Origin: a virus
Direction: 5' to 3' (one strand)
Virus record (IMG/VR): IMGVR_UViG_3300037111_000040
Location: 32,001-96,000 of that record
Length of the DNA stretch: 64,000 nucleotides
This document shows, piece by piece, positions 31,485 through 46,429 of this stretch. Each line of letters begins with the position of its first letter. The first letter of the stretch is position 1. The notes beneath the pieces were generated by a model that worked only from the letters and a program-made list of their open reading frames with translations, ran no database searches and was not told the origin of the DNA. Made by a program: the position numbers and the translations under genes.

Positions 31485-33311
31485 ATGTCTAATAGGAACT
31501 TCGTCCGCTCGGTGTTGGCAGAGGGCGGCGAAATCAAGCAACTAATGATTGCTTCCACAGACTCCGGTGGTCTCGGACTGTGTAATCCATCTGTGTTTGT
31601 TGACCGCGACGAACTCTGGATGATTCTGCGAAACGTCAACTATACACTCTACCATGCGGAGAACGGGCAAACGTTCAACAATCGCTTCGGTCCTCTCGCC
31701 TATCTCAATCCCGAAAACGACCTGCATTTACGGACAACGAATTTCCTTTGCAAACTCGCTCCAAGCCTCGAAATCGAACGCTATTGGAAGATTGACACAA
31801 GCATGCTCGATAAAGAGCCGCTATGGGAGTTTGTCGGGCTTGAGGACGCACGCCTCGTTCGGTGGGATGGACATCTCTATGCCATTGGGTGTCGGCGAGA
31901 CACCACAACCAACGGGCAAAGCAGAATGGAATTTTCAGAACTGGAAGTGACAGATAAATCTGTAAAAGAAATTGGTCGCTACCGCATTGAGCACCCCACA
32001 AATCCTGAATGGTATTGCGAAAAGAACTGGATGCCTGTGCTCGATATGCCGTACCACTTCATCCAGTGGACAAATCCTGCCGTGCTGGTCAAGGCTGACC
32101 TAACGACGCTGAAATCGTGTCGCGTGCGGGAAGTGGATGAAGCCGATAAAATTGAAGGGATGCCATTTCTTCGTGGTAATTCCCAAGTCATTCATTGGAA
32201 GGATTACTACGTCTGCGTAGTTCACGACTGCGACCTTTTCAAGAACAACATCGGGCAGAAAGACGCCACGTATATGCACCGATTTGTGGTCTATGACCAG
32301 AACTGGAAAATCGTAAGAATCGGTGAACCATTTTCGTTCTTGGATGGGGAGATAGAATTTTGCTGCGGACTGACGGAGTGGCAAAACGACCTGCTGATAA
32401 CTTTCGGGTTCCAAGATAACTGCGCTTTCATTCTTCGGGTGCCGGAACGGGCGATTCCCAAGGTGCTGGGTCTGAATGAAACCTCACAGCAGCCAAGAGT
32501 TAAAAATAAGTGGCACACAACTTCCTACCCGACACTTGAAATAACAACCGCCATTCCAAAGAATGGATGCCCACCGCATTGCGCGTTCTGCCCACAAGAT
32601 AAACTAGTCGCGGTATACAACGGGGAACGCATTCTGTCTTTGCCGGATTATGTAAAGCTTATCGACAAGGTGCCGCCAGAAATACAGATTACCTTCGCTG
32701 GTTGCGCAGAGCCTTTTCTAAACCCCAATTGCGCGGCGATGATATGCCATGCCCACGCTACGGGGCACAAGGTTTCCCTGTTCACAACTGGGATGGGGAT
32801 GAGCCTCGCCGACTTCGAGCAGATTAAGGGGATACCGTTCACAGGAGTGCAGGGCGGGTTCGTCCTTCACCTTCCCGACGTAGAGGGTTACTTTTCCCAT
32901 CATTCAGACAAATACACGCAACTGTTAACGGCGATTAAGCGTGAATCACGTCATATCGAGAATTTCCGCTCCATGACGATGGGGACACTATCACCGGCTT
33001 TGCGAGGGCTGTTCCCTGAAACAATCAGACCTGCTATGTACAATCGGGCGGGTAATGTGAAGAAAACTGAGTTCATTCAGATTAGTCTCAACACAACGGA
33101 AATGAGAAATAGCGATACAACTTGTGGTTGTCCAGAGCGGCTGTATCATAGTGTTCTGTTGCCAAACGGCGATGTCTCACTCTGCTGCATGGATTACGGT
33201 TTGGAGCACATACTAGGCAATTTGTACAAGCATTCCTTTGAAGAAATCGTTCCCAAGGATGGCACGCCATTCGTATTGTGCAAGACCTGTGAAAACGGAG
33301 TTCCAGCATGA
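31485..33311 (+). CDS. Glycosidase-like beta-propeller fused to radical SAM/SPASM domain
   Basis: 'NPS','GLEDARL','EKNWMP','IEFCCGL' (GH130-like); 'CPPHCAFCPQ' and SPASM 'PNGDVSLCCMDY..EHILGNL...CKTC'. Confidence 0.7.
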   Translation: MSNRNFVRSVLAEGGEIKQLMIASTDSGGLGLCNPSVFVDRDELWMILRNVNYTLYHAENGQTFNNRFGPLAYLNPENDLHLRTTNFLCKLAPSLEIERYWKIDTSMLDKEPLWEFVGLEDARLVRWDGHLYAIGCRRDTTTNGQSRMEFSELEVTDKSVKEIGRYRIEHPTNPEWYCEKNWMPVLDMPYHFIQWTNPAVLVKADLTTLKSCRVREVDEADKIEGMPFLRGNSQVIHWKDYYVCVVHDCDLFKNNIGQKDATYMHRFVVYDQNWKIVRIGEPFSFLDGEIEFCCGLTEWQNDLLITFGFQDNCAFILRVPERAIPKVLGLNETSQQPRVKNKWHTTSYPTLEITTAIPKNGCPPHCAFCPQDKLVAVYNGERILSLPDYVKLIDKVPPEIQITFAGCAEPFLNPNCAAMICHAHATGHKVSLFTTGMGMSLADFEQIKGIPFTGVQGGFVLHLPDVEGYFSHHSDKYTQLLTAIKRESRHIENFRSMTMGTLSPALRGLFPETIRPAMYNRAGNVKKTEFIQISLNTTEMRNSDTTCGCPERLYHSVLLPNGDVSLCCMDYGLEHILGNLYKHSFEEIVPKDGTPFVLCKTCENGVPA

Positions 33312-35422: not shown

Positions 35423-37018
35423 ATGGCGAACGAGAGTGCATGGCAAGAAGGTTGGCAGCTTGGCGCACAGCGCGGACAAGAACGGCGCGCTCACAAGCAA
35501 GCTTTGTCCGACGCTGAGTTTCAGGAAAAGCACAACGAAATTCAGGGGATGGTGGACAACCTCCAGACCAGACTCTCGACGCTCGATCCCAGCAGCACGG
35601 AGTATCTCCAAACACGCGACCAACTAGCGCAAGCTCTGCAGACACGCGACGAGCATTGGGGAAGCCAGACCCATCCGAACGCGCTGATGAGATTCGGAAA
35701 GATGTTGGGCAAGGACCTCCGTTTCCCTAAGAAGCCAGCATCGGCTCCCGCTCCGCCTCCGATCTACGGACAGTCGACGATTGACGCGAACGGAGAGAAA
35801 ATTCCAGCAGGCCCAGCCTACGAAATCCGCGAGCAGGGTTCACAAACGCCGGAGCAAGTTAAGGCACAGGCCGAGGCTACTCAGCTTGCCTCCGCAGGAC
35901 CGCCGTCTCCAACCGAGCAAGGAGAGGCAACAGCGCAAACGGAGATCACAAGAACAAACGCTGTTAACCAAGCGACGATTGAGTGGCTCAAGAAGAATAA
36001 TGCCCCACAAGAGGTAATCGATCAGGCGGTGGCGAGCCTCGCCAAGGTTCCTCTCACGAAGGGCGTGAAGGCGATAGGACAGCCTTACAAAGACTCGAAT
36101 GATGGAAAATTCTACCAGCGTTTCTTGAATCCGGACGGCACCGATTTCCGCGAAGAGGTTCCCGGATACACGCAGCCAGCAGGAAAGGCGAGTCATTCGA
36201 AGTTCGCTGAAACGGAGGCCGCATACAGACACGACTACAACATCCCTGAAGGGGAGCCTCTGACTGTGGCCGATATTCTGTTCATCAACCAGCAAACGGC
36301 GCTATCGAGTGCGGCCCCCTCCGAGAGCATCACCACCACTCTGAAGCAGGACTTAAACGGCTGGTATGTGCCGGTTACGGAAACGAATCGCCGTGTCCCC
36401 GGATTTGGGGTAATCCTGAAGCCACCCCGTGGGCCGTTACCGGGCGAAGATGAAAATGCTCAACCCGGAGAGGGACAACCGACGCATTTGGGCGGGGTAA
36501 AGAAAAAGGCACAGGCTGCTGGCTCACCGACCGCGTCATCTGGTGCAACTCATGTCGGCAAGGCGGTTCTCCGTGGCCGCACACCGGAGTACACGGCAGC
36601 GTACAAGGACTACGAGACTGCCAAGGGATTGTCTAAAATTGCTGATCTGGTGGCACAGCATCCGGACGATGCGATCAACCAGAAGCGCCTTGCTGTTGCT
36701 CTTGAGAAAGTCAGCGCCGGAAGGTTCACGACACAGGCTCTCGACTACATCATCACATCCGGATGGGGGAACACGATTCAGCAGTGGGTCAATAATCCGA
36801 CACACGGTGCTTTGCCAGCCGATATTCTCCGCCAATTGATTGACGGCGCGCATGAAAACGAAACGGCGAAGAAGCAAGTTCTCGACGACATAAACACATC
36901 GGAAAGCGAGCCCGAAGGTTCCACACCGCCGTCGTCCACGAATCCCGACCTAGATGCGATCATGAGAACCCTACAGAACGGACCATCGCAAACCGCACCT
37001 GCGCATCCGCCACAGTAA
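35423..37018 (+). CDS. Internal virion/ejection protein (putative)
   Basis: Helical, Q/A/P-rich; position. Confidence 0.55.
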   Translation: MANESAWQEGWQLGAQRGQERRAHKQALSDAEFQEKHNEIQGMVDNLQTRLSTLDPSSTEYLQTRDQLAQALQTRDEHWGSQTHPNALMRFGKMLGKDLRFPKKPASAPAPPPIYGQSTIDANGEKIPAGPAYEIREQGSQTPEQVKAQAEATQLASAGPPSPTEQGEATAQTEITRTNAVNQATIEWLKKNNAPQEVIDQAVASLAKVPLTKGVKAIGQPYKDSNDGKFYQRFLNPDGTDFREEVPGYTQPAGKASHSKFAETEAAYRHDYNIPEGEPLTVADILFINQQTALSSAAPSESITTTLKQDLNGWYVPVTETNRRVPGFGVILKPPRGPLPGEDENAQPGEGQPTHLGGVKKKAQAAGSPTASSGATHVGKAVLRGRTPEYTAAYKDYETAKGLSKIADLVAQHPDDAINQKRLAVALEKVSAGRFTTQALDYIITSGWGNTIQQWVNNPTHGALPADILRQLIDGAHENETAKKQVLDDINTSESEPEGSTPPSSTNPDLDAIMRTLQNGPSQTAPAHPPQ

Positions 37019-37020
37019 AA

Positions 37021-39567
37021 ATGGCAAACGATCTCACTTACGATCAGGCAATCGAGAAGCTCAGGAAACTCTCAGAGCCCGAGCAGAGGCTTGTCCTTGG
37101 AAAGATGTCTCCAGATGCGCTGAAGCAAATTCGGCAAAGGCTCGAAGCTCCACAAGCGGACTTCACCGCGAATCCGAAGGGCGAGGGGCTGTACCGGATG
37201 CTCCCCTCATCGGATCAGGGATTCACAAATATATCGGATGAGGTTCAGATTCCTTTCAGCAACGTGCAAAAGGCCATCGATGCCGGTTTCCATCTTCATC
37301 CAGACGAAGCACCGCGCTACCAAAGGGACTTCGAGCATCAAGGCGAGGGACCGACCATTCTCGAAAGGGCGAACGACAAGATTCAAAATCTCTTGCAGCC
37401 ATCCACTGGGCGCATTGGTCAGATGCCGATTGCTCCGTCTGGATTCGATGTTAACGCTATGAAAGCGGCTGGCAGAAGTCTTTACAGCGCACCGGAGTTT
37501 TTGAAGGATTTGTCAGTGGCTCTTTATGGGGCGGTGCGTCCGAGTGCTGGCGCGCAGGATGTGAACAATCTCCTCAACATGATCGATCCGACGCAAGTTC
37601 CGGACCAATTGCGTACACAGTTCCGTGAGGACGCGAAGAAGGACCCAAAGTTGGCTGTCGACAATTTGCTGGGGAGCATCGCGGGTATGGGCATACTCGC
37701 CGCCGTCACTCACGGAGCGGCAAAAACCGTGGGGGAGGTTTACGCGAAGACGAGTATAGTTCCAGCCGAGCATTTGCGTACTGGGATCAGGGATACATTG
37801 GGCGTATCCGAAAACACCGAGCGGACGGTTGAGAAGTTCGGCAAGGAATCCGAGGATGTGCGGAAGAAAAACGTCAATGAGACTGAGCAGAACCGAAAGG
37901 ACAAGATCAAGGCCATCAAGGACCGGCAGGAAGAGGAGGCCAAGCACCAGCAGGCAACCGACGAAGTACGGAAGCGCAACGATGCGGTCATGCGCGACCG
38001 CCAGAAGCGCGTCGACACGCAACAAAAGTTGGACACCGCATCGAAGGAACTCGACGACAAGATCGCTAAGGCCGAGAAGGACGCGAACGCCGCTAACAAT
38101 GCCGCGTGGAAGGTATGGCGCGCCAAGGTCGCCAATGTCCAAGTGGATATGCAGACCGTGGTCGACGCGATCAAGGCACAAACGGACAAGATGAGTCCGG
38201 AGCAAGTTTCAACGTTCAAGGAAATCCTTCGCGAGACAGCGCCAGCGGAAGAGGATTTGTCCGAGCTTGACCAGACGAGAAACTCTATCGCGAAGAACGC
38301 AGGCTACGACAAACCATACGCAGAACTTCCGCCCGACAGAAAAGCGGTCATTGACGATCAAATAAAGCGTATCGGTTTGGGCGATCTAGCCGATGAAGCC
38401 ACTGGTGGTGAAGGTGGTGGCGCGACGGGCGGCGGACGCGGTCTTAAACAGATTTCCGCCAGCCGTCTCCATGGGTGGAAGACTCAGTTGGAAGATGCAG
38501 TGCGCGCCGACCGCACTGGCAATGTGAAGTACGCCATCGGACAGGTGCTTCAGGTCGTCCGAAAGCTTGAAGAGGATGTTTCAAAAGAGGCCGGAGCCGA
38601 CGATGAGTTGAAGAAAGCGCGCGCCCTCCATGGCCCCTACGTCGACACATTCCGGAACACGCAGACGACACCGGGAACCGCCGCGAACTACGTCAGGTCG
38701 AAGGTCACACCGGGCTTCACGAGGGACGCGAAGCTGGAAGACTACCTTGGAAGGGTCGGGCAATATGATCATTCGATTCCGAAGCTCGCGCAACACGTCG
38801 AAAACTTGCAAGCAGGACTGAAGGCACTTCCCAAGGATCAGCCTCTTCGCGAGCAGATCACACTTCCGCCGCCGCCGCTTGAACCAGCATCGAAGTTTGA
38901 GCCAAAACCACTCACTCCGCATCCAGAGGTTCCCAACATTCAGGCGGAGAACGTACAGTACATCGACCGTGGATTGCGCAAGTACGGCAAGGTCGGAAGC
39001 TGGGTATTGAGAATTGTCGTTGGCGGACTAACCACGAGGCTGGCACACGGTAATTTGAGCGAGTTCGGTGGAGAATTGCTCGTTGGACAAGTCGGTGTGA
39101 CGCTACTGACAAAAGCCTTGCGCTCGCCGAGCGTCCTCGAATGGCTGGCAAGGCCGAGCGCCGAAGACATGCAGATGATCGAGAGCCTTCCGCCACAGGA
39201 TGCGGACAAGCTTCGTCTATCGCTCAATCTTCTCGCCAACGAGGACAAGCTCAGAGACCCGCGCCTAAATAGCTTGCAGATCGCTCCAGCAATGGCGGCG
39301 TGGCTTGCCGGGGGAAAGGCGACACAGCAAACACCTCCAGCGCTACTCGATGTCAAGAAGCAGGGCGAACAGTTGCAAGCTCCACCCGCCCCGCCTCCGG
39401 CCCCACCGGCTGCGCCACCGCCTCCACCCGGACCGCAGGCGTCGGTAGCGGCAGCTAATTTGCAAAAGATCATCGAATCGGCTCAGGCGCTCCAAGGCGG
39501 AGGCGGACCGAAGCCCGTTTGGAGCCACGTCTACAGCGAAGAGCTTGGGAGAATAATACCCGTTTGA
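37021..39567 (+). CDS. Large internal virion/ejection protein (putative)
   Basis: 848 aa coiled coil with hydrophobic patches; position. Confidence 0.55.
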   Translation: MANDLTYDQAIEKLRKLSEPEQRLVLGKMSPDALKQIRQRLEAPQADFTANPKGEGLYRMLPSSDQGFTNISDEVQIPFSNVQKAIDAGFHLHPDEAPRYQRDFEHQGEGPTILERANDKIQNLLQPSTGRIGQMPIAPSGFDVNAMKAAGRSLYSAPEFLKDLSVALYGAVRPSAGAQDVNNLLNMIDPTQVPDQLRTQFREDAKKDPKLAVDNLLGSIAGMGILAAVTHGAAKTVGEVYAKTSIVPAEHLRTGIRDTLGVSENTERTVEKFGKESEDVRKKNVNETEQNRKDKIKAIKDRQEEEAKHQQATDEVRKRNDAVMRDRQKRVDTQQKLDTASKELDDKIAKAEKDANAANNAAWKVWRAKVANVQVDMQTVVDAIKAQTDKMSPEQVSTFKEILRETAPAEEDLSELDQTRNSIAKNAGYDKPYAELPPDRKAVIDDQIKRIGLGDLADEATGGEGGGATGGGRGLKQISASRLHGWKTQLEDAVRADRTGNVKYAIGQVLQVVRKLEEDVSKEAGADDELKKARALHGPYVDTFRNTQTTPGTAANYVRSKVTPGFTRDAKLEDYLGRVGQYDHSIPKLAQHVENLQAGLKALPKDQPLREQITLPPPPLEPASKFEPKPLTPHPEVPNIQAENVQYIDRGLRKYGKVGSWVLRIVVGGLTTRLAHGNLSEFGGELLVGQVGVTLLTKALRSPSVLEWLARPSAEDMQMIESLPPQDADKLRLSLNLLANEDKLRDPRLNSLQIAPAMAAWLAGGKATQQTPPALLDVKKQGEQLQAPPAPPPAPPAAPPPPPGPQASVAAANLQKIIESAQALQGGGGPKPVWSHVYSEELGRIIPV

Positions 39568-40442
39568 TCTTCAAACAGCGGCAAGTCTGCTAGATCATCT
39601 TCTCTGCAACGCTTGTGCCTGTTTAGATATGCAAGCGCGCGTCTCGCGAGCTTCGGGTATTTCTCAAATCTCTCAATCCACGTATTGCAAAGTACACAAA
39701 GCAAACCACGGCGGCATTTGTCGCATGACCGACCGGGTTTACAGCAATTATGATCGTGGTCGATAGAAAATCTTCCGGTTGGATACCTACTGTCAGGCGA
39801 CCCGCAAATAGCGCACACTCCACCTTGAGCGGCGAGGGTCTTTTCGTACCACTCTAAATCTACTCCACGACTTTTCAGTCTGTTTTTTCTGTCCCATGTT
39901 GCAACATCTTGATTATTCATTCTTTTACTCCTTGCTTTAGAGGCTATCGCCCCCTTATTTCTGAGATAAGAGTTTGAACATATACGCTTTCTGTATTCGG
40001 GGTCTTCCTCCAATTTTTTCAGCAGCCATAATCGCTTATGTCCCCTATTTTTATTTTCTGATTTCCTTTTTATCTCCTTGACGTGATCGGCGTCTTTCTC
40101 ATACTGCCTCTGCTGATAGGATCGCCCGCATTGCTTACATCGCGAGGCACGACCGTAGAGGCCGCTTTTTGATCTTGAATAGTTGCCCAACGGCTGAGGC
40201 ACCCCATTAAATGAGCAGGTGCAAGAAGAGCATATTTTTGATTCTGGTCTGACGATCTCGCGTTTCGGATGCTTCTCTCTGTAGCTTGCTTTCTTGTCAG
40301 AGTACGTGCATATTTTGCATTTATACTTTCGCCCATGCGGCTCTCCTCGATCAACATGGAATTCCTCCAGTATTTTCGGGATACGGCATTTGCAGCAAAC
40401 CCGCTTTATGCTTTCTGGTATATTTTCTTCGTGGGGTGTCAT
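39531..40442 (-). CDS. Endonuclease VII-type (recombination endonuclease VII) homing endonuclease
   Basis: 'QGGVCAICG...IDHDH...RGLLC..CN'; N-terminal Zn fingers. Confidence 0.85.
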   Translation of the reverse strand: MTPHEENIPESIKRVCCKCRIPKILEEFHVDRGEPHGRKYKCKICTYSDKKASYREKHPKREIVRPESKICSSCTCSFNGVPQPLGNYSRSKSGLYGRASRCKQCGRSYQQRQYEKDADHVKEIKRKSENKNRGHKRLWLLKKLEEDPEYRKRICSNSYLRNKGAIASKARSKRMNNQDVATWDRKNRLKSRGVDLEWYEKTLAAQGGVCAICGSPDSRYPTGRFSIDHDHNCCKPGRSCDKCRRGLLCVLCNTWIERFEKYPKLARRALAYLNRHKRCREDDLADLPLFEDQTGIILPSSSL

Positions 40443-40539
40443 CGGAAACCTCTTTTCCGGTTGGCGTGAGCCGGGTGCGCAAACACCTGACGCCCCGATT
40501 ATACTCCGTAAATCGTTGAATTTCGTCTATAATCGTGCC

Positions 40540-43500
40540 GTGCCTGCACAACACAAACTCGTCAAGGTGGACGATTCGATCATCGCCTTTCCGGCCACTC
40601 TGCCCGACGAAGACGTTGCTGCGGTCATCAAAAAATTCAAGCAATCGAAGCCGACAAAAGACAAATCTCTGAGCCAGTCTCCGTTGCCATCTTCCGCTGG
40701 CGTGATGACGGAAGAGTCGGAGCACGCGCGCCAGTTGGCCCCGGCGCAACCTGTAGGCTCCGCCATCCCGGATTGGCTTACGCAGCCGATCCCACAAACG
40801 GCTGACAGGATCAACAAAGCATTCAACCTGATGCTCGGATTTCCGGGTGGCGTCACTCCAGCCGAAGCCGAAATCAACGAGCGCAACAGAAAAGCCAACG
40901 AGGCGTTCGACAAAGCATTCCCGCTGACTGGCGGCGCGATGATGGGCGCGCATAATTTTGCAGAGGGACTGCTGACGCCAGCGAACCTCATGCTGATGCT
41001 CACGGCTCCGGAATCGAAGCTCCTGAGCGCCTTCTTCGCGACGCAGGCCATGAGGGGATCGTATCGCGACGCGAAGGAAGCGGAAAAGGATTTTAAGGAA
41101 GGGAAGAACAAAGAAGCGGCTCAGTACATTACGCAATCGCTGCTCGGTTTGGGAGTGGCTGGTCTCGCGGGCTCGCACGCCGTGCGTGGAACGGCGGTCG
41201 ACACAAGCGCGCTTTTCCCAGAGGGACCGAAGACCATCGAAGGTGAGTTTGAGCGCGCCGGAGAGCATGAAATCGTTCCGCAATCGACCGGAGTCAGATC
41301 GGTTGTTGACGCGATGGCGAAGATGAAGAGAGCCGAGCCTCCGTCGCTGCCGGAAGTGAAGGCTGAGGCAAACAAGCTTGCGGTTGCACCGAAAACAATC
41401 GGCCCGAAGGAAGCGGAGGTAAAGCGGCCTTCGTTCAAGGAACCAGATTTGTCAACAGCGGAAGTAGTGTTCTCCGCCAACAAATCACCGGACCGTCTCT
41501 ATCGCGGCACGAATGGCGAAGAAGAACTTGGAAATATACTCGCGTCGAAGAGCATAGCCTCCACTTCTGAAACGGCATCGCGCTTAGGAAAGAGCGGACA
41601 TCAAGGGTTGACATTTTTCTCTGATCGTCCGAATGTCGCGACGAGCTACGTTCACGACGGGGGCTATGTGATTGAATTAGATGCATCGAAAGTCCCAGAA
41701 ACTTCAGGACATGGCGCTGGGGAAATAGCAACTAACAAGCCAACTTCGCTCGATGCGGTCACTCGCATTTTCAAGATCGGCAAGGACGAGAATGGATACC
41801 ACGCTATCGACGTTACAAAACAAGTTCTTCCGCAATTAGGCGGCGGGAAAATTCGGAGCGCCACACCAGAGGGCATCAGGGAAGAAACGCAACATGTCAT
41901 TGGCGGTAAGCAGGATTCCATTCATCCACTGGAAGTTGTGAACACTGCGATGCTGGCGCTCGGTAAGAACAATAAGGTTTCTAGGATCGTTATTCAGTCG
42001 ATCCCCGTCGATGTGGTGGATGTGCTTGCCAAGAACGGCTTCACTACCAAACAACTTTTTAGCCAGTATGATGTGGTCAGCAACGCTCTTCCCGTCGATG
42101 ACCGAGCGACGGTAGCCAGAGGGCTTTCGAGTGCTCTTCAATTGGCTGGCACACGCTTTAGAGCAGCACTTGATGGGGTACTTCCTCCGAATCCTACAGG
42201 TAGAGACAAGGAATTCTTGGCCGCAGTTCGCGCAGTTAAGGCGAACCCTAGCGTCCTTGGGGCTTTTGCGCCCTTTGTTAGCAGCACTGATCTTAGCGGC
42301 GATCTTGGCCTTGGCGGCGGGGTCTTGGGAAATGGCGAGTTGGGCGCAGGAAACGGAGCACCATCGGCCCCAATTCTTGGCGGCGTTGATCTGGCTCGGG
42401 TATCTCCAGAACTCAGCCCCGCACAACTCGCAGAATCTTTGAACAGGCATGGACAGATCATAGCGAAAAATGGTCCAACTGAATCCGTCGAAGATAAAAA
42501 TAACAGGCCGTTCGCGTTGTTCAAGCTGCTCTACAAACCGCAGCCCGCAAGCGAAGTCGAGATCGCCAGAGAGGAAATGGCGCTCTACGAAGTGCAACGT
42601 ATGCTTGATCAGATTCCACCGCCAGCGGACCCTGTCTCCACAAGCACGCCGGAGCAGATTGAGAAGTGGGGTGCTGAATATAAGGCGTGGGCACAGAAGG
42701 CGGCTCCCTCTCTTGAGCGGTACAAGGAGATCGCCCAACGCATTGGGGAACTGAAGAACAAAGAAATCGGCGAGATTCGCAAGCTTCCCGATGGAAACAG
42801 AGTTCTCTACCTGAACCGTGGCGGACTTAAGGCTCTCTACCACGGTTTGATGGGTGGACCGCCGCCGAAGAATTACGGCCTCAGCGGACTCTCGCTCGAT
42901 GTTTCAGACATCAAGGCGATCACAAACAATCTCGCGTTGCTGAAGCCACTGCTCCACGGCGAACTGACGCAGATGATGCTCAGGGGCATGGACAAGAATG
43001 GCCTGACAATCTCTATGATGCCGAGGAAGGGAGAGAGTCTGAGTGAGGCGCTCGCCACATTGCGCGAGGAATTGAACCATGGCTGGCAAAGGCGATTCGC
43101 GGACGCAGCAGGAAACCATCTTTCTCCGGAACACTTTGCGAATTTGAACGTCGCGATGCCGAAGACGATGAGCGATTATCTCGGCACCAACTATCCAGAG
43201 ATCAAGAACGACGGAAGTGAAGTGATGAACCGCAGGCGTGTCCTTGAAGCGTCTTCCAAGATGCTTTCTGAGTCCCCAAGAAGTTTGGGCTTGACGGACG
43301 ACGAGTGGGCCGCATATCTCTTTCAGTATTTCCACGCTGTCGAAGCAGAGCACGGAGACAAGGCGCTCAACGAGCTTCTCCACATCACCGCATTAGCAAA
43401 GGAAGTGAAAAATGTCTACTTCTCGACCACAGACCGATTCCCCGGAGTCCAAGAAAATGCGAGAGGCATGGGAGGCGTACAAAAAGGACGGCCTCAAGGG

Positions 43501-44430
43501 GCTGAGGGAACTGGCCCGCCAGCGCAACGCGGAGGAGCGGAAGGAGTCGGCCTAGAAAAGGTCAAGCGCGAAGCTGAGGCTCTGCAACCTGCCGCTGCGA
43601 GGACGGATACTCCCGAATTCAAGACGTGGTTCAAAGAATCGAAGGTGACCGACGAAAGTGGGAAGCCTAAGCCCGTGTTCCACTCCGGATGGTTCGACGA
43701 AAAAGAGGACCCCGTTCCGGACATCGGAGAAAACGGATTTCATTTTGGAACACGAGATGCGGCTCAGTCGAGGAACGGCGGGAAGCTTGTCGATGACTTT
43801 ATCCGTGAGGGCAAGGTCGAACAATACGAAAACGAAGACGGAAAGATGGTATGGGGATGGTCGTCGGGGAGTGAGGAATCTTACGACTTTGACGAAGAGG
43901 GGTTTGAAACGGAGGCTGCAGCGAGACGCGATCTTGAGCAACGCGCAACCGAGCAAGAAGTTGACGAAGATATGCCTCTCACGGAAGCATATCTTTCAAT
44001 TCAAAATCCAAAACGCGTAAAGGATCAGGAAGACGATTGGGCTCCTGCTGTTGCGAAAGCAAAGCGCGAAGGCTATGACGGCATTGTTTATCGGAACGAG
44101 TTTGAAGACAAAGGCACCGACTCGTATATCGCCTTTTACCCCGAGCAGATAAAATCTGTAAAAAATGAGGGCGCACACGATCCTTCGAACCCCAACATCC
44201 TCAAGAGCGTGAAGAGGGCGGCGGAGAAGCTGAAGCCGCCAACAGACCTGTCACAGAAGGCGACGGAGTGGGCAACGAAGCATATGCACGATTCGACGCC
44301 TGCGGCTAACAAGGAATTCGGCAAGTTCTACGCTGAGAAGTTTCCCGATGGCGAAACTCCGATGGGAAGGGCGTGGATGAAGTTCCACGGCTTTGGCTCG
44401 GTGAAACCCGGACAACAGTTTGGACAATAG
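40540..44430 (+). CDS. Polyvalent internal virion protein with two ADP-ribosyltransferase-like domains
   Basis: Leaderless GTG 6 nt after TATAAT; 'LYRG...FFSD' ART-like; 'SKVTDESGKPKPVFH...YLSIQNP...GYDGIVY...IAFYPEQIKS' ART-PolyVal-like. Confidence 0.7.
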   Translation: MPAQHKLVKVDDSIIAFPATLPDEDVAAVIKKFKQSKPTKDKSLSQSPLPSSAGVMTEESEHARQLAPAQPVGSAIPDWLTQPIPQTADRINKAFNLMLGFPGGVTPAEAEINERNRKANEAFDKAFPLTGGAMMGAHNFAEGLLTPANLMLMLTAPESKLLSAFFATQAMRGSYRDAKEAEKDFKEGKNKEAAQYITQSLLGLGVAGLAGSHAVRGTAVDTSALFPEGPKTIEGEFERAGEHEIVPQSTGVRSVVDAMAKMKRAEPPSLPEVKAEANKLAVAPKTIGPKEAEVKRPSFKEPDLSTAEVVFSANKSPDRLYRGTNGEEELGNILASKSIASTSETASRLGKSGHQGLTFFSDRPNVATSYVHDGGYVIELDASKVPETSGHGAGEIATNKPTSLDAVTRIFKIGKDENGYHAIDVTKQVLPQLGGGKIRSATPEGIREETQHVIGGKQDSIHPLEVVNTAMLALGKNNKVSRIVIQSIPVDVVDVLAKNGFTTKQLFSQYDVVSNALPVDDRATVARGLSSALQLAGTRFRAALDGVLPPNPTGRDKEFLAAVRAVKANPSVLGAFAPFVSSTDLSGDLGLGGGVLGNGELGAGNGAPSAPILGGVDLARVSPELSPAQLAESLNRHGQIIAKNGPTESVEDKNNRPFALFKLLYKPQPASEVEIAREEMALYEVQRMLDQIPPPADPVSTSTPEQIEKWGAEYKAWAQKAAPSLERYKEIAQRIGELKNKEIGEIRKLPDGNRVLYLNRGGLKALYHGLMGGPPPKNYGLSGLSLDVSDIKAITNNLALLKPLLHGELTQMMLRGMDKNGLTISMMPRKGESLSEALATLREELNHGWQRRFADAAGNHLSPEHFANLNVAMPKTMSDYLGTNYPEIKNDGSEVMNRRRVLEASSKMLSESPRSLGLTDDEWAAYLFQYFHAVEAEHGDKALNELLHITALAKEVKNVYFSTTDRFPGVQENARGMGGVQKGRPQGAEGTGPPAQRGGAEGVGLEKVKREAEALQPAAARTDTPEFKTWFKESKVTDESGKPKPVFHSGWFDEKEDPVPDIGENGFHFGTRDAAQSRNGGKLVDDFIREGKVEQYENEDGKMVWGWSSGSEESYDFDEEGFETEAAARRDLEQRATEQEVDEDMPLTEAYLSIQNPKRVKDQEDDWAPAVAKAKREGYDGIVYRNEFEDKGTDSYIAFYPEQIKSVKNEGAHDPSNPNILKSVKRAAEKLKPPTDLSQKATEWATKHMHDSTPAANKEFGKFYAEKFPDGETPMGRAWMKFHGFGSVKPGQQFGQ
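41836..42450 (-). CDS. HNH endonuclease nested antisense inside the polyvalent protein gene
   Basis: Two CxxC..CS..C fingers, 'GYRR', 'HHIDGDRLNNDPRNL.VL...QH..VH'; TATGAT -10 six nt before ATG. Confidence 0.85.
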   Translation of the reverse strand: MPVQRFCELCGAEFWRYPSQINAAKNWGRWCSVSCAQLAISQDPAAKAKIAAKISAANKGRKSPKDARVRLNCANCGQEFLVSTCRIRRKYPIKCCSKACASQLKSTRKPSGYRRSVIDGKSVADHIILAKKLFGSEAVLGKHIHHIDGDRLNNDPRNLIVLTERQHRSVHNFQWMNGILLTANDMLRFFPDALWCGAPNFPAA

Positions 44431-44446
44431 GTGGTAAATTGAAGCC

Positions 44447-44686
44447 ATGCTGATTCAGATTCTCGACGAACTTTGGCTGGACATCTGGGCGGTAACCGCC
44501 ATCAAGAAAATCGACGAAAAAAGCTGTGCGTTGTGGCTTACCGGTCAATCCGGGGAGGAGGGGCTCGTGTTGGACTATCCAGCAGAGGAAGTTGCTCAAG
44601 CGATCAACGACGAACGCGAGAAAGATGGCGAAGAGCCGGAAGAAGAGAAGAACGCGGAGCCGGAAGAGGACGACGAGGAAGAGTGA
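44447..44686 (+). CDS. Acidic hypothetical protein
   Basis: Leaderless after TGnTAAATT; 79 aa. Confidence 0.6.
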   Translation: MLIQILDELWLDIWAVTAIKKIDEKSCALWLTGQSGEEGLVLDYPAEEVAQAINDEREKDGEEPEEEKNAEPEEDDEEE

Positions 44687-44750
44687 GCTATAGTAGGGCC
44701 AGCGGTGTTTGAGCACCGGCCTTGCGGCCCAATCGTCGAAGGAGGACGAT

Positions 44751-45491
44751 ATGCCAGCCCATAGTTTCACATTAGCACCAAATCTTTGTATTTGCCGCGA
44801 TCCAAACTGCGACGTTCCGCTAGGCTATTGCCACTGCGGATGCGGAATAAGGACGGCTGTCGCGCGACAATCCAGCACAAAACGTGGGCATGTAAATGGA
44901 ATGCCCAAAATGTGGATCAGTGGTCACTCGCAAGCACACAAGCGAATCGATTTCAATGACGCAAAACCCTTCAAAATTGATGGCGTATATTGCAAGTTGA
45001 TTGGCCTAACCTTCGGCATGTATGCAGTCGTATGCGAACGTGACCATAAATGGCTAACAAGGTGGAGGTGGCAGGCCGCTTGGAGCAGCGCGGATGAGTG
45101 TTTCTACGCGATCAGAACCCACCGTGAAAAATGGAAAAAGCAGGAAACAATTAGGATGCACAGGTTCATCCTTGGACTCACTCGGAAAGATTTGCGAGTT
45201 GTCGATCATGAAAATGGGAATACGCTCGATAATCGGCGCAGGATTAGAGGGCGCGGAAATCTTAGAATCGTTACGCATCGTCAGAGCAAGCTCAATTGCG
45301 GGGTACGCAAGGATTGCGTGAGCGGTTTCAAAGGTGTCGGCGTAGACAAACATACTGGACGATTCAGAGCCCGCATTACAATTCACGGCAAACTTACCTC
45401 TTTAGGGCATTTTGAGACTCCAGAAGCGGCTCATCGGGCCTACTGTAAAGCGTCGAGGGTTTACCACGGCGAGTACGGGAGAACAGAATGA
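44751..45491 (+). CDS. HNH-AP2 homing endonuclease
   Basis: 'CHCGCG', 'MHRFILG', 'VDHENGNTLDNRR', AP2 'SGFKGV...EAAHRAY'. Confidence 0.88.
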   Translation: MPAHSFTLAPNLCICRDPNCDVPLGYCHCGCGIRTAVARQSSTKRGHVNGMPKMWISGHSQAHKRIDFNDAKPFKIDGVYCKLIGLTFGMYAVVCERDHKWLTRWRWQAAWSSADECFYAIRTHREKWKKQETIRMHRFILGLTRKDLRVVDHENGNTLDNRRRIRGRGNLRIVTHRQSKLNCGVRKDCVSGFKGVGVDKHTGRFRARITIHGKLTSLGHFETPEAAHRAYCKASRVYHGEYGRTE

Positions 45492-46429
45492 GCGCCGGGA
45501 CGGACGAACTCCTTACCGCTTTCGAGGAGTGCCGCCGCAAAGCCTTCTGGATGCGAGAGTGGGAATCTACGAAGCTCACCGCGACCCAGATGCTCCAGAT
45601 CGGCGTCCGTACCGGTCTGACGGAGCCAACGAAGAAAGATTGGGGTCTGGCGGCTGGTGAGGCGCTCTACTCATTGGGTGCCAACCATGGACTGGTGAGC
45701 AAACAATTAAACATTCACGACGAAATCGTCCATCTCTCAGCCATAGCCGAAGCCGTGGCCACCGTCCTGCGCAAAGATGCCCCGTGGAAGCCGCCTGAGA
45801 CGGTCGAGATAGGAAACGGCCACGCGTGGTCATCGGACGTGCTCCTAGACCCCTCTGGAGCCCGTCTACGCCGTATCGTTTTCGCTTCCTCATGGAACGA
45901 TGACCGGCATTATAGCCTTTGCCGGTCTTGGGGCAGTCTCGGAAGCGTCTGCGTCCATAATCTCCCGCTTCAGATAGGCGTGGTTCTTTTAGGGGCGCAC
46001 AAAGATGGAAAATTCCATAGCTGCTGGTCCAAAGCCTACAGTCATCCCGTGAACAGGCAGATAAGATTTAGAAGGAGAAACAACGTAAGCGAAGGCTTCA
46101 AAAGCACTTGGGGACAAATTTGGCGTGAGGATCATGGCGAGTTTAGCACCCAAGATTGGTTGCAAGCCATGCTTGACGACTCAGTTTTACAGGACGCGCT
46201 CCTTGTAGTTGATCTTCCTGTCCCAGAAAAGGTGGCGCGACAAAGAATCCTCGATCTCGCCGCGCGAAGGCTGGATGAAATATGGGCTACGAAGGAACTT
46301 CCGGATCAACAGCTATCGACCTGTGATTGGCCCCAACCGTGCGGTTTTCGCTCAAATTGCCACTCGGGGAACCAGCCCAGCGGGCGCTACGGCTTTGTGC
46401 CCGTGTCCAGTTTATCCACCTCTGGATAG
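45488..46429 (+). CDS. Cas4-like/PD-(D/E)XK-fold nuclease (possibly degenerate)
   Basis: N-terminal 'FEECRRK' and C-terminal 'C.....C.F...C' Fe-S ligand pattern. Confidence 0.55.
   Translation: MSAGTDELLTAFEECRRKAFWMREWESTKLTATQMLQIGVRTGLTEPTKKDWGLAAGEALYSLGANHGLVSKQLNIHDEIVHLSAIAEAVATVLRKDAPWKPPETVEIGNGHAWSSDVLLDPSGARLRRIVFASSWNDDRHYSLCRSWGSLGSVCVHNLPLQIGVVLLGAHKDGKFHSCWSKAYSHPVNRQIRFRRRNNVSEGFKSTWGQIWREDHGEFSTQDWLQAMLDDSVLQDALLVVDLPVPEKVARQRILDLAARRLDEIWATKELPDQQLSTCDWPQPCGFRSNCHSGNQPSGRYGFVPVSSLSTSG

Follow-up and report, generated by a model that had tools for sequence, protein, structure and literature searches.

How can an intact endonuclease gene reside inside another protein-coding gene that seems to be neither split nor spliced? 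This question is raised by a locus in a window of 64,000 bp, covering positions 32,001 to 96,000 of the IMG/VR virus record IMGVR_UViG_3300037111_000040, a virus genome of 121,714 bp that is complete according to CheckV (the window denotes the whole stretch analysed, and all coordinates refer to it). Here, a gene for an HNH endonuclease (41836..42450, minus strand) lies wholly within the gene for a polyvalent protein (40540..44430, plus strand), in the following termed the host gene. To our knowledge, homing endonucleases have been thought to persist in genes only by means of self-splicing introns, inteins, or splitting of the host gene. Based on comparative sequence analysis, the locus is likely to represent a self-contained homing endonuclease cassette that was inserted backwards into the polyvalent gene, codon-aligned and comprising a number of bases divisible by three, and that is read through. 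The nested HNH is probably selfish, and translation of the host protein most likely continues across the insert, with no intron or intein involved. Such a splicing-free residence had been proposed in a preliminary description of the window made from the sequence alone, and it is now supported by filled and empty sites, dN/dS ratios, all 18 related loci with a nested HNH, negative searches for introns and inteins, and the choice of codons.

On the minus strand, an open reading frame (ORF) extends over 41836..42843, encoding 335 aa if read from a GTG and 204 aa if read from the ATG at 42450; the latter version, comprising 204 codons and a TAA stop, represents the HNH gene. Its deduced product matches Pfam family HNH_3 (PF13392) in residues 126-167 with an E value of 3e-9 (36.8 bits, cut-off 24.8) and, in addition, 12 PHROG families annotated as HNH endonuclease. 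The stretch matched by HNH_3 (41950..42075, minus strand) is the catalytic core, which is preceded by two zinc ribbons of the form CxxC...C. An HNH profile alignment of seven sequences (A2) revealed 57 invariant columns, including eight Cys and the pattern HH...N...H...H, and all 57 invariant family residues are present in the HNH of the window; the residues conserved in seven out of seven sequences comprise H145, H146, N154, N158, H167, and H171 together with the eight Cys. The two frames share their codon boundaries, the triplet at 41836-41838 being the TAA stop on the minus strand and TTA (Leu) on the plus strand. ORF reading, HNH_3, and PHROGs thus confirmed what had first been described from the letters, namely an intact 204-aa HNH antisense to the ORF at 40540-44430, in codon register and without a stop on the plus strand. 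A megablast search with the HNH gene gave no match, i.e., no close DNA relative among cultured phages was found.

In the aligned opposite frame, only the codons TTA, CTA, and TCA read as a stop. In 127 crude genes of the phage, these three make up 626 of 32,811 codons (1.9%), and at the codon frequencies of the phage a run of 204 codons without an antisense stop has a probability of P = 0.020; in the two nuclease genes next to it, 11 and 5 of these codons are present. Taken alone, the open antisense frame is only mildly unusual, and the single case is suggestive, not decisive. The overlap becomes significant because the nested layout recurs in relatives.

This recurrence was seen when the 208-aa host-frame peptide of the insert was scored against 1.84 billion cluster representatives, resulting in 67 matched clusters at E <= 1e-3, of which 39 reach E <= 1e-10. 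Nearly all of the matched representatives (60/67) are proteins of 1000-5574 aa, in which the match is found at varied relative positions. An alignment of 12 plus-frame peptides (A1) is most conserved opposite the catalytic and zinc residues of the HNH and opposite the HNH start codon. DNA scans with A1 led to five loci in IMG/VR (L004-L008) and 11 in metagenomes (L009-L019), and all 16 display an intact HNH ORF on the opposite strand, in codon register, together with an open host frame. Scans with the HNH profile A2 revealed 12 loci, two of which, L020 (44% identity) and L027 (60%), are full-length relatives, each with an in-register HNH nested in an open frame that comprises at least 2192 codons; the remaining 10, distant partial matches from HNH genes of the free-standing or intein type, are all without nesting. 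Altogether, 28 distinct related loci were fetched. A backwards, in-register HNH was identified at each of the 18 with a plus-frame or full-length HNH match (L004-L008, L009-L019, L020, and L027), which correspond to 13 distinct cassettes if L014-L017 are counted as one. Homologues carrying the segment but no HNH on the reverse strand were looked for as well; the HNH was present at every one of these loci read as DNA. In a set of 5.8 billion proteins, three close HNH proteins had been called, each on a short contig, with a step in bit score from 201 to 82 behind them, so that this HNH clade seems to be almost always hidden inside a longer ORF. Judged by these comparisons, the cassette of the window belongs to a sizeable family of putatively mobile cassettes in phage polyvalent proteins, a family that has hardly been annotated.

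In regard to individual loci, L004-L008 and L019 form a more distant clade of nested, register-aligned HNHs with C-terminal repeats resembling helix-turn-helix motifs. Loci L014 and L017 are located on one metagenome contig of 87,238 bp, where cassette and flanks are identical and 43,606 bp apart (about half the contig), probably because a genome of about 43.6 kb was assembled as a head-to-tail dimer; the host ORF comprises just 600 aa there. A search of IMG/VR with the HNH as single query resulted in a distant match inside a 745-aa ORF on the same strand (L003), which was set aside as uninformative.

The host ORF is open on the plus strand from 40294, or from the GTG at 40540, to 44430. On record, gene callers had determined a single protein of 1340 aa with a start at 40408 (P0003, 100% identical), which overlaps the endonuclease VII gene on the minus strand. 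In homologues, no alignment extends upstream of the GTG at 40540, with P0004-P0008 aligning from residue 4-5; read from this GTG, the product has 1296 aa. Residues 1038-1210 (43651..44169, plus strand) match the domain ART-PolyVal (PF18760) with an E value of 6.1e-10 (40.4 bits, cut-off 31.2), and the homologues, proteins of 969-2264 aa, have the same domain on record in 13 of 15 cases; because of this match and its recurrence, the host gene product is assigned as a polyvalent protein. Relatives carry PF18760, LPD38, and SLT, and a tblastn search with the host gave matches in seven records, all of them in the ART-PolyVal part. One claim of the preliminary description has to be withdrawn, namely that the insert follows just after an ART-like domain: PF18760 is the only Pfam ART domain of the host protein and is C-terminal, and the 140 aa directly before the insert offer a weak lead at best, with no Pfam family at E <= 1 and weak PARP and Tox-ART hits in the ESM Atlas. 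A Pfam search of the flanks of the insert in the window gave no match either.

Selection on the two strands was compared using seven distinct cassettes with DNA, i.e., 21 pairs, by the method of Nei and Gojobori. As the first description had asked for, dN/dS was computed on both strands, and in 21 of 21 pairs it ranged from 0.10 to 0.42 in the HNH frame, which is thus constrained, and from 0.65 to 1.13 in the host frame; with synonymous sites near saturation (pS 0.5-0.7) and overlapping frames that bias the measure, these ratios are rough, while their direction is consistent. HNH identity (52-68%) also exceeds host-frame identity (40-61%) in every pair, and differences sorted by HNH codon position follow the order 3 > 1 > 2 throughout. 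Purifying selection seems to act on the HNH frame, and the host-frame peptide appears to drift almost neutrally.

For the codons, the HNH protein was held fixed and synonymous codons were drawn at random from the phage's own usage. In the host frame of the window, 3.8 stops, 5.3 Cys, and 2.7 Trp were expected in this simulation, and none of the three was observed (P = 0.019, 0.003, and 0.047, respectively); aromatic residues numbered 7 compared to 13.7 expected (P = 0.018). The resulting passenger peptide, host residues 433 to approximately 652 (41836..42495, plus strand), is free of stops, Cys, and Trp and rich in Gly, with 25 Gly residues versus 11.4 expected; Gly enrichment was rejected as a family trait, being shared by L014 only. 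Summed over the seven other cassettes, with the flanks of each host serving as codon reference, 25.8 stops and 23.1 Cys were expected and again none was found, which for the eight cassettes together amounts to 0 stops versus about 29.6 and 0 Cys versus about 28.4. The cassette segments of 37 hosts contain no Cys in 7487 residues, and outside the cassettes Cys accounts for 0.01% of 88,961 residues in those hosts. Likewise, Cys is absent from all 1296 residues of the host protein in the window, as compared with 1.80% in the other crude genes of the phage. The HNH needs at least eight Cys on the opposite strand. Since the codon choice of the HNH avoids stops and Cys in a Cys-free host, the host frame appears to be translated through the insert; such sparing codons are hard to explain otherwise.

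Based on the limits of similarity, a break in the alignment with the homologue P0167, and the AT skew, the mobile cassette seems to comprise about 660 bp (about 220 codons, in frame, 41836..42495). Its left edge coincides with the HNH stop, and its right edge lies between 42493 and 42522. The host protein had been said to gain about 210 aa; the gain in frame stands, but the unit is slightly longer than the HNH ORF. Other hosts are similar only within host residues 438-651 or 425-656. P0167 matches host residues 5-90, 293-432, and 663-1226; within the domain directly before the insert (host residues 293-432, 41416..41835, plus strand) its residues 495-633 are 67% identical, divergence sets in at 432/433, which is the HNH stop, and homology resumes at 663. 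P0004 and P0005 match host residues 4-228 and 694-1024, so that both flanks form one protein in homologues. The AT skew is positive along the host gene and negative over 41900-42349, as it is over the neighbouring nuclease gene on the minus strand. Transposon-like ends were also looked for, and neither terminal inverted repeats nor a target duplication were found at the cassette edges.

Among the relatives, family members fill at least three sites of one conserved host domain: site A after the motif AAENG, site B after RYWGNE..P, and site C after GEGM..FYD..P...K. Other hosts are uninterrupted there, and where a host has one site filled, its other sites are uninterrupted. On a tree of 37 cassettes, site labels, which derive from crude motif rules and read 'other' in 12 tree rows, are clustered (9 changes versus a shuffled mean of 17.6, with 0 of 200 shuffles matching) though not monophyletic. 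In this tree, the window's cassette groups as sister with that of P0006 (support 100/100), and the flanks of P0006 are different. Alignment of homologues thus revealed filled and uninterrupted sites A, B, and C in the family and, versus P0167, a left junction at the HNH stop. For the family, these alignments show presence and absence at the same site, as is typical of homing endonuclease genes; for the window itself, they provide the left break point only. As a target, the cassettes prefer this conserved domain of polyvalent proteins. Its motifs, APF..W.ELA.KR.LR.AAENG, YD.IAWTTG.QQ..RY, GEGM..FYD..LP, and ITPAM...G.PLF, are shared by the polyvalent proteins P0018-P0061 and by locus L027 (which is the locus of P0021), and a Pfam search of four host proteins gave no match for this domain.

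The HNH also seems to possess its own expression signal. The hexamer TATGAT (42457-42462, minus strand), which resembles a -10 box, lies 6 nt upstream of the ATG of the HNH and was found by comparing cassettes: TAnnAT ends exactly 6 nt before an ATG or GTG start in eight of nine close cassettes and nAnnnT in all nine, with TGn before the hexamer in seven of nine. As background, the hexamer occurs at that spacing at 14 of 7153 ATG/GTG sites in the phage (0.2%). As the stretch does not belong to the HNH ORF and the host-frame peptide in which it lies drifts elsewhere, its conservation points to a function. A -10 box at this spacing places the transcription start at the start codon, and by this promoter geometry TATGAT suggests a promoter for a leaderless HNH mRNA. 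In L006 and L007, a Shine-Dalgarno-like AGGAG is found near the start instead of the -10 box.

Taken together, the following course of events may be proposed. The HNH would be made from the minus strand off its own -10 promoter as a leaderless mRNA and, as the distribution of the family suggests, would cut cassette-free alleles, the repair of which would copy the cassette in. The host gene would be neither split nor spliced; in line with the codon evidence, ribosomes would read the plus strand through the insert, thereby adding about 220 residues. To be tolerated in this way, synonymous codons of the HNH would have to avoid TTA, CTA, and TCA, which give stops on the host strand, as well as GCA and ACA, which give Cys there. 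Purifying selection would maintain the HNH, and the passenger peptide would drift almost neutrally within those limits. With somewhat less assurance, we also favor the broader view that the whole HNH lineage is specialised for a backwards life in coding DNA, with a leaderless promoter and codons tuned for a mirror peptide free of stops and Cys.

Several observations, given here and with the alternatives below, weigh against a backwards cassette that is read through. Searches with the plus-frame peptide can reveal read-through cases only, and the unbiased HNH-centred scans yielded just two further full-length relatives. An equally long open run in antisense register is found in 8 of 55 crude genes of at least 204 codons. 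Regarded individually, the GC-rich loci L011, L013, and L027 show no significant lack of stops (P = 0.23-0.31), and two of them, L027 (P = 0.41) and L011 (P = 0.09), show no significant lack of Cys. With respect to the promoter, the HNH had been credited with its own -10 box from the start; this box is present and conserved in relatives, but a generic promoter scan over 41500-42900, which also required a -35 box, found no site. A terminator scan of the same region found none either.

Further points of this kind concern the insertion site. Though P0167 lacks the cassette, it contains about 400 aa of other modules at this position and thus does not provide a clean empty site. No empty allele of the phage's own gene was seen among homologues or in DNA contigs from two further samples; the latter extend across both junctions in a sequence identical to that of the window, and a joined form was not seen. 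The flanks in the window, moreover, do not show the canonical site motifs. Sequencing runs containing 0.55-0.63 of the words had been considered as possible empty alleles; the two of them that were compared with the window (X10, X11) turned out to be low-coverage fragments identical to it, without joints. The missing empty allele and the deviating site would suit a decayed or domesticated relic of one homing arrival, kept in place as clean removal is unlikely or as the phage uses it, and the two nuclease genes flanking the host gene indicate that this phage tolerates many. A relic is nevertheless unlikely in our view: the HNH is intact with its full set of invariant residues, and the family displays low dN/dS in the HNH frame, a conserved promoter, and several sites with empty counterparts, although these counterpoints argue for activity of the family and not specifically of this copy.

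Phage HNH genes are common in group I introns, and the cassette could also be an intron or another element acting at the RNA level, which carries an antisense homing endonuclease and is spliced out, the open host frame being incidental. The available RNA contigs (X16 and X17, from two peat metatranscriptomes) cover 42719-43300 only and thus lie outside the insert. A search of Rfam with both strands of 39000-46000 stayed empty at E <= 1 and therefore gave no group I or group II intron; as Rfam contains described families only, a novel ribozyme would be missed. At the protein level, neither a Hint nor an intein family is among the Pfam matches of the host protein at E <= 0.1, and an intein junction is absent, the insert having no Cys, varying first residues (L, G, S, A, P), and ends without His-Asn. 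The earlier statement that no signature of an intein or a group I intron is visible therefore held up in both databases. Above all, an intron would have no need for an open, in-register, and Cys-free frame, which is just what the eight cassettes of the simulation share and what, as to openness, applies to all 18 loci read as DNA. Excision as an RNA element thus appears even less probable than a relic. As a further observation, the metatranscriptome contigs show no differences to the window over 42719-43300, and DNA carry-over is possible.

Structures of both products were predicted with AlphaFold2 (AF2) and evaluated by the predicted local distance difference test (pLDDT). Using alignment A2, the HNH model reached a mean pLDDT of 70.3, with 75-90 in the core. 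A Foldseek search of this model against PDB gave nothing at E <= 1e-3, I-HmuI (1u3e) being found at rank 37 with an E value of 5.3, and a sequence search of PDB with the HNH resulted in no matches. For the passenger peptide, modelled with A1, the mean pLDDT was 55.3, and 107 of 208 residues remained below 50. Its residues 51-110 (41986-42165, plus strand), which lie opposite the HNH core, were predicted as confident helices (pLDDT 83-91), so that the reading as a fully disordered linker was rejected; with half of it predicted as confident helices, the peptide is no simple disordered linker, which is a further point against the proposed reading. The input of this model consisted of only 12 sequences with a conservation driven by the other strand, and the helices may be either a real fold or an artefact of that conservation. 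That the host-frame segment is a true polyvalent domain with the HNH-like ORF as a by-product, or that the whole overlap is due to chance, could draw on these helices and on the long antisense frames in other genes of the phage but is hardly tenable, being already contradicted by an HNH_3 match above the Pfam cut-off, by conserved host-frame columns that are those opposite the catalytic and zinc residues of the HNH, by the dN/dS of the two frames, and by the absence of the segment at homologous positions in other hosts.

In the surroundings of the host gene, two free-standing nuclease genes were identified, one on each side: a gene of the endonuclease VII family (39531-40442, minus strand; PF02945, E 3.9e-14) and a gene combining HNH and AP2 (44709-45491, plus strand; phrog_99, E 7.3e-30). 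Together with the nested HNH, three nuclease genes are thus found in or around one gene. The host gene ends a co-oriented block that opens with weak matches to portal, major head, and tail fibre proteins, and a PHROGs search with the eight ORFs adjoining the host gene gave no families. Three consecutive proteins encoded on the plus strand are free of Cys, with 531 aa (35423-37018), 848 aa (37021-39567), and 1296 aa (40540-44430), the last being the host protein; this may reflect a constraint on ejected proteins. From the position of its gene, and with some support from the Cys-free composition, the host protein might itself be a virion (ejected) protein, as which the preliminary description had presented it. 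The 848-aa ORF upstream of the host gene carries a Pro/Ala run, APPAPPPAPPAAPPPPPGP, at its C-terminal end (39300-39567). Elsewhere in the phage, outside the window, an open frame of 181 aa revealed a weak match to an HNH motif (E 6e-4; G000:C1:10158-10241).

If the proposed reading is true, selfish nucleases would have a third route, beside introns and inteins, into conserved coding sites. What is indicated is a route free of splicing, on which the invader leaves the frame of its host open, the strand opposite to its own gene encoding an additional peptide that does no damage. Giant phage proteins would thereby have a steady source of new sequence, as each cassette insertion adds about 220 new residues, part of which may already fold into helices. 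For genome annotation, such nucleases would be of concern as gene callers miss them almost completely. For the study of overlapping genes, the locus would offer a clean natural example of purifying selection on one strand, with the other strand bound by 'do no harm' limits only. It also raises the question of whether a conserved domain can tolerate an insert of 220 residues, and the lack of Cys shared by host and passenger peptide points to a constraint on polyvalent proteins.

Among known systems, endonucleases of introns and inteins come to mind first, such as HNH enzymes of the I-HmuI type in group I introns and HNH or LAGLIDADG enzymes in inteins, which are removed by RNA or protein splicing. 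The cassette of the window would follow the same logic, i.e., a conserved site of a needed gene is occupied and the gene left working. While those elements are spliced away, no ribozyme and no Hint domain was found here, and the codon evidence suggests that the insert stays in the protein. Free-standing HNH homing endonucleases of phages, reportedly exemplified by mobE of T4 and by mobE in nrdA of Aeh1, are said to lie between genes or to split the gene of the host. They would have in common with the HNH of the window a selfish HNH with its own expression signals, a residence among conserved phage genes, and the lack of a ribozyme. In contrast, the mobE type reportedly leaves its host genes on either side or divides a host gene into two separately translated pieces, whereas the host frame of the window is unbroken.

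A loose parallel is found in the mitochondria of Campsomeris wasps, for which an in-frame insertion in cox2 with an HNH-like qnu nuclease and antiparallel overlapping ORFs is described (PMC5374615). As far as this account goes, it shares with the window a nuclease-bearing insertion in frame and ORFs on both strands. The cox2 insertion, however, is about 3 kb in size with several ORFs, and separate cox2a and cox2b mRNAs are reported, so that the gene is split and not read through (PMC5374615).

The closest known elements are the ShiLan domain and the insertion in Pacc40 gp60, described as 'hidden HNH' elements in DNA methylase genes of mycobacteriophages (Arsenault, Gosselin, and Gogarten 2025, PMC11855218). 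As presented in the article text, these and the cassette of the window are alike in being in-frame insertions of about 200 codons without a host-frame stop, in harboring, in a different frame, an HNH equipped with zinc fingers, with no signature of an intron or intein, in an HNH stop codon placed right at the border of the inserted segment, and, at the level of the family, in a disjunct distribution among related hosts. Leaderless translation has also been proposed for the ShiLan HNH by its authors (PMC11855218). The terms antisense, reverse, opposite strand, and complement do not occur in the text of that paper, and a full-text literature search for the antisense layout, which covered articles and not the supplements or the GitHub survey of the ShiLan work, returned the same-strand ShiLan study and a genome announcement citing ShiLan only. 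Two differences are apparent from the article: the host is a methylase gene in ShiLan and a polyvalent protein gene in the window, and the ShiLan HNH shares the strand of its host gene, of which it occupies the third frame, whereas the HNH of the window lies codon-aligned on the opposite strand (PMC11855218). Because of this position on the opposite strand, the HNH of the window would need a promoter of its own, for which the conserved -10 box is a candidate. Judged from its layout, the element of the window would therefore represent an antisense form of the hidden-HNH insertion elements, equipped with its own promoter.

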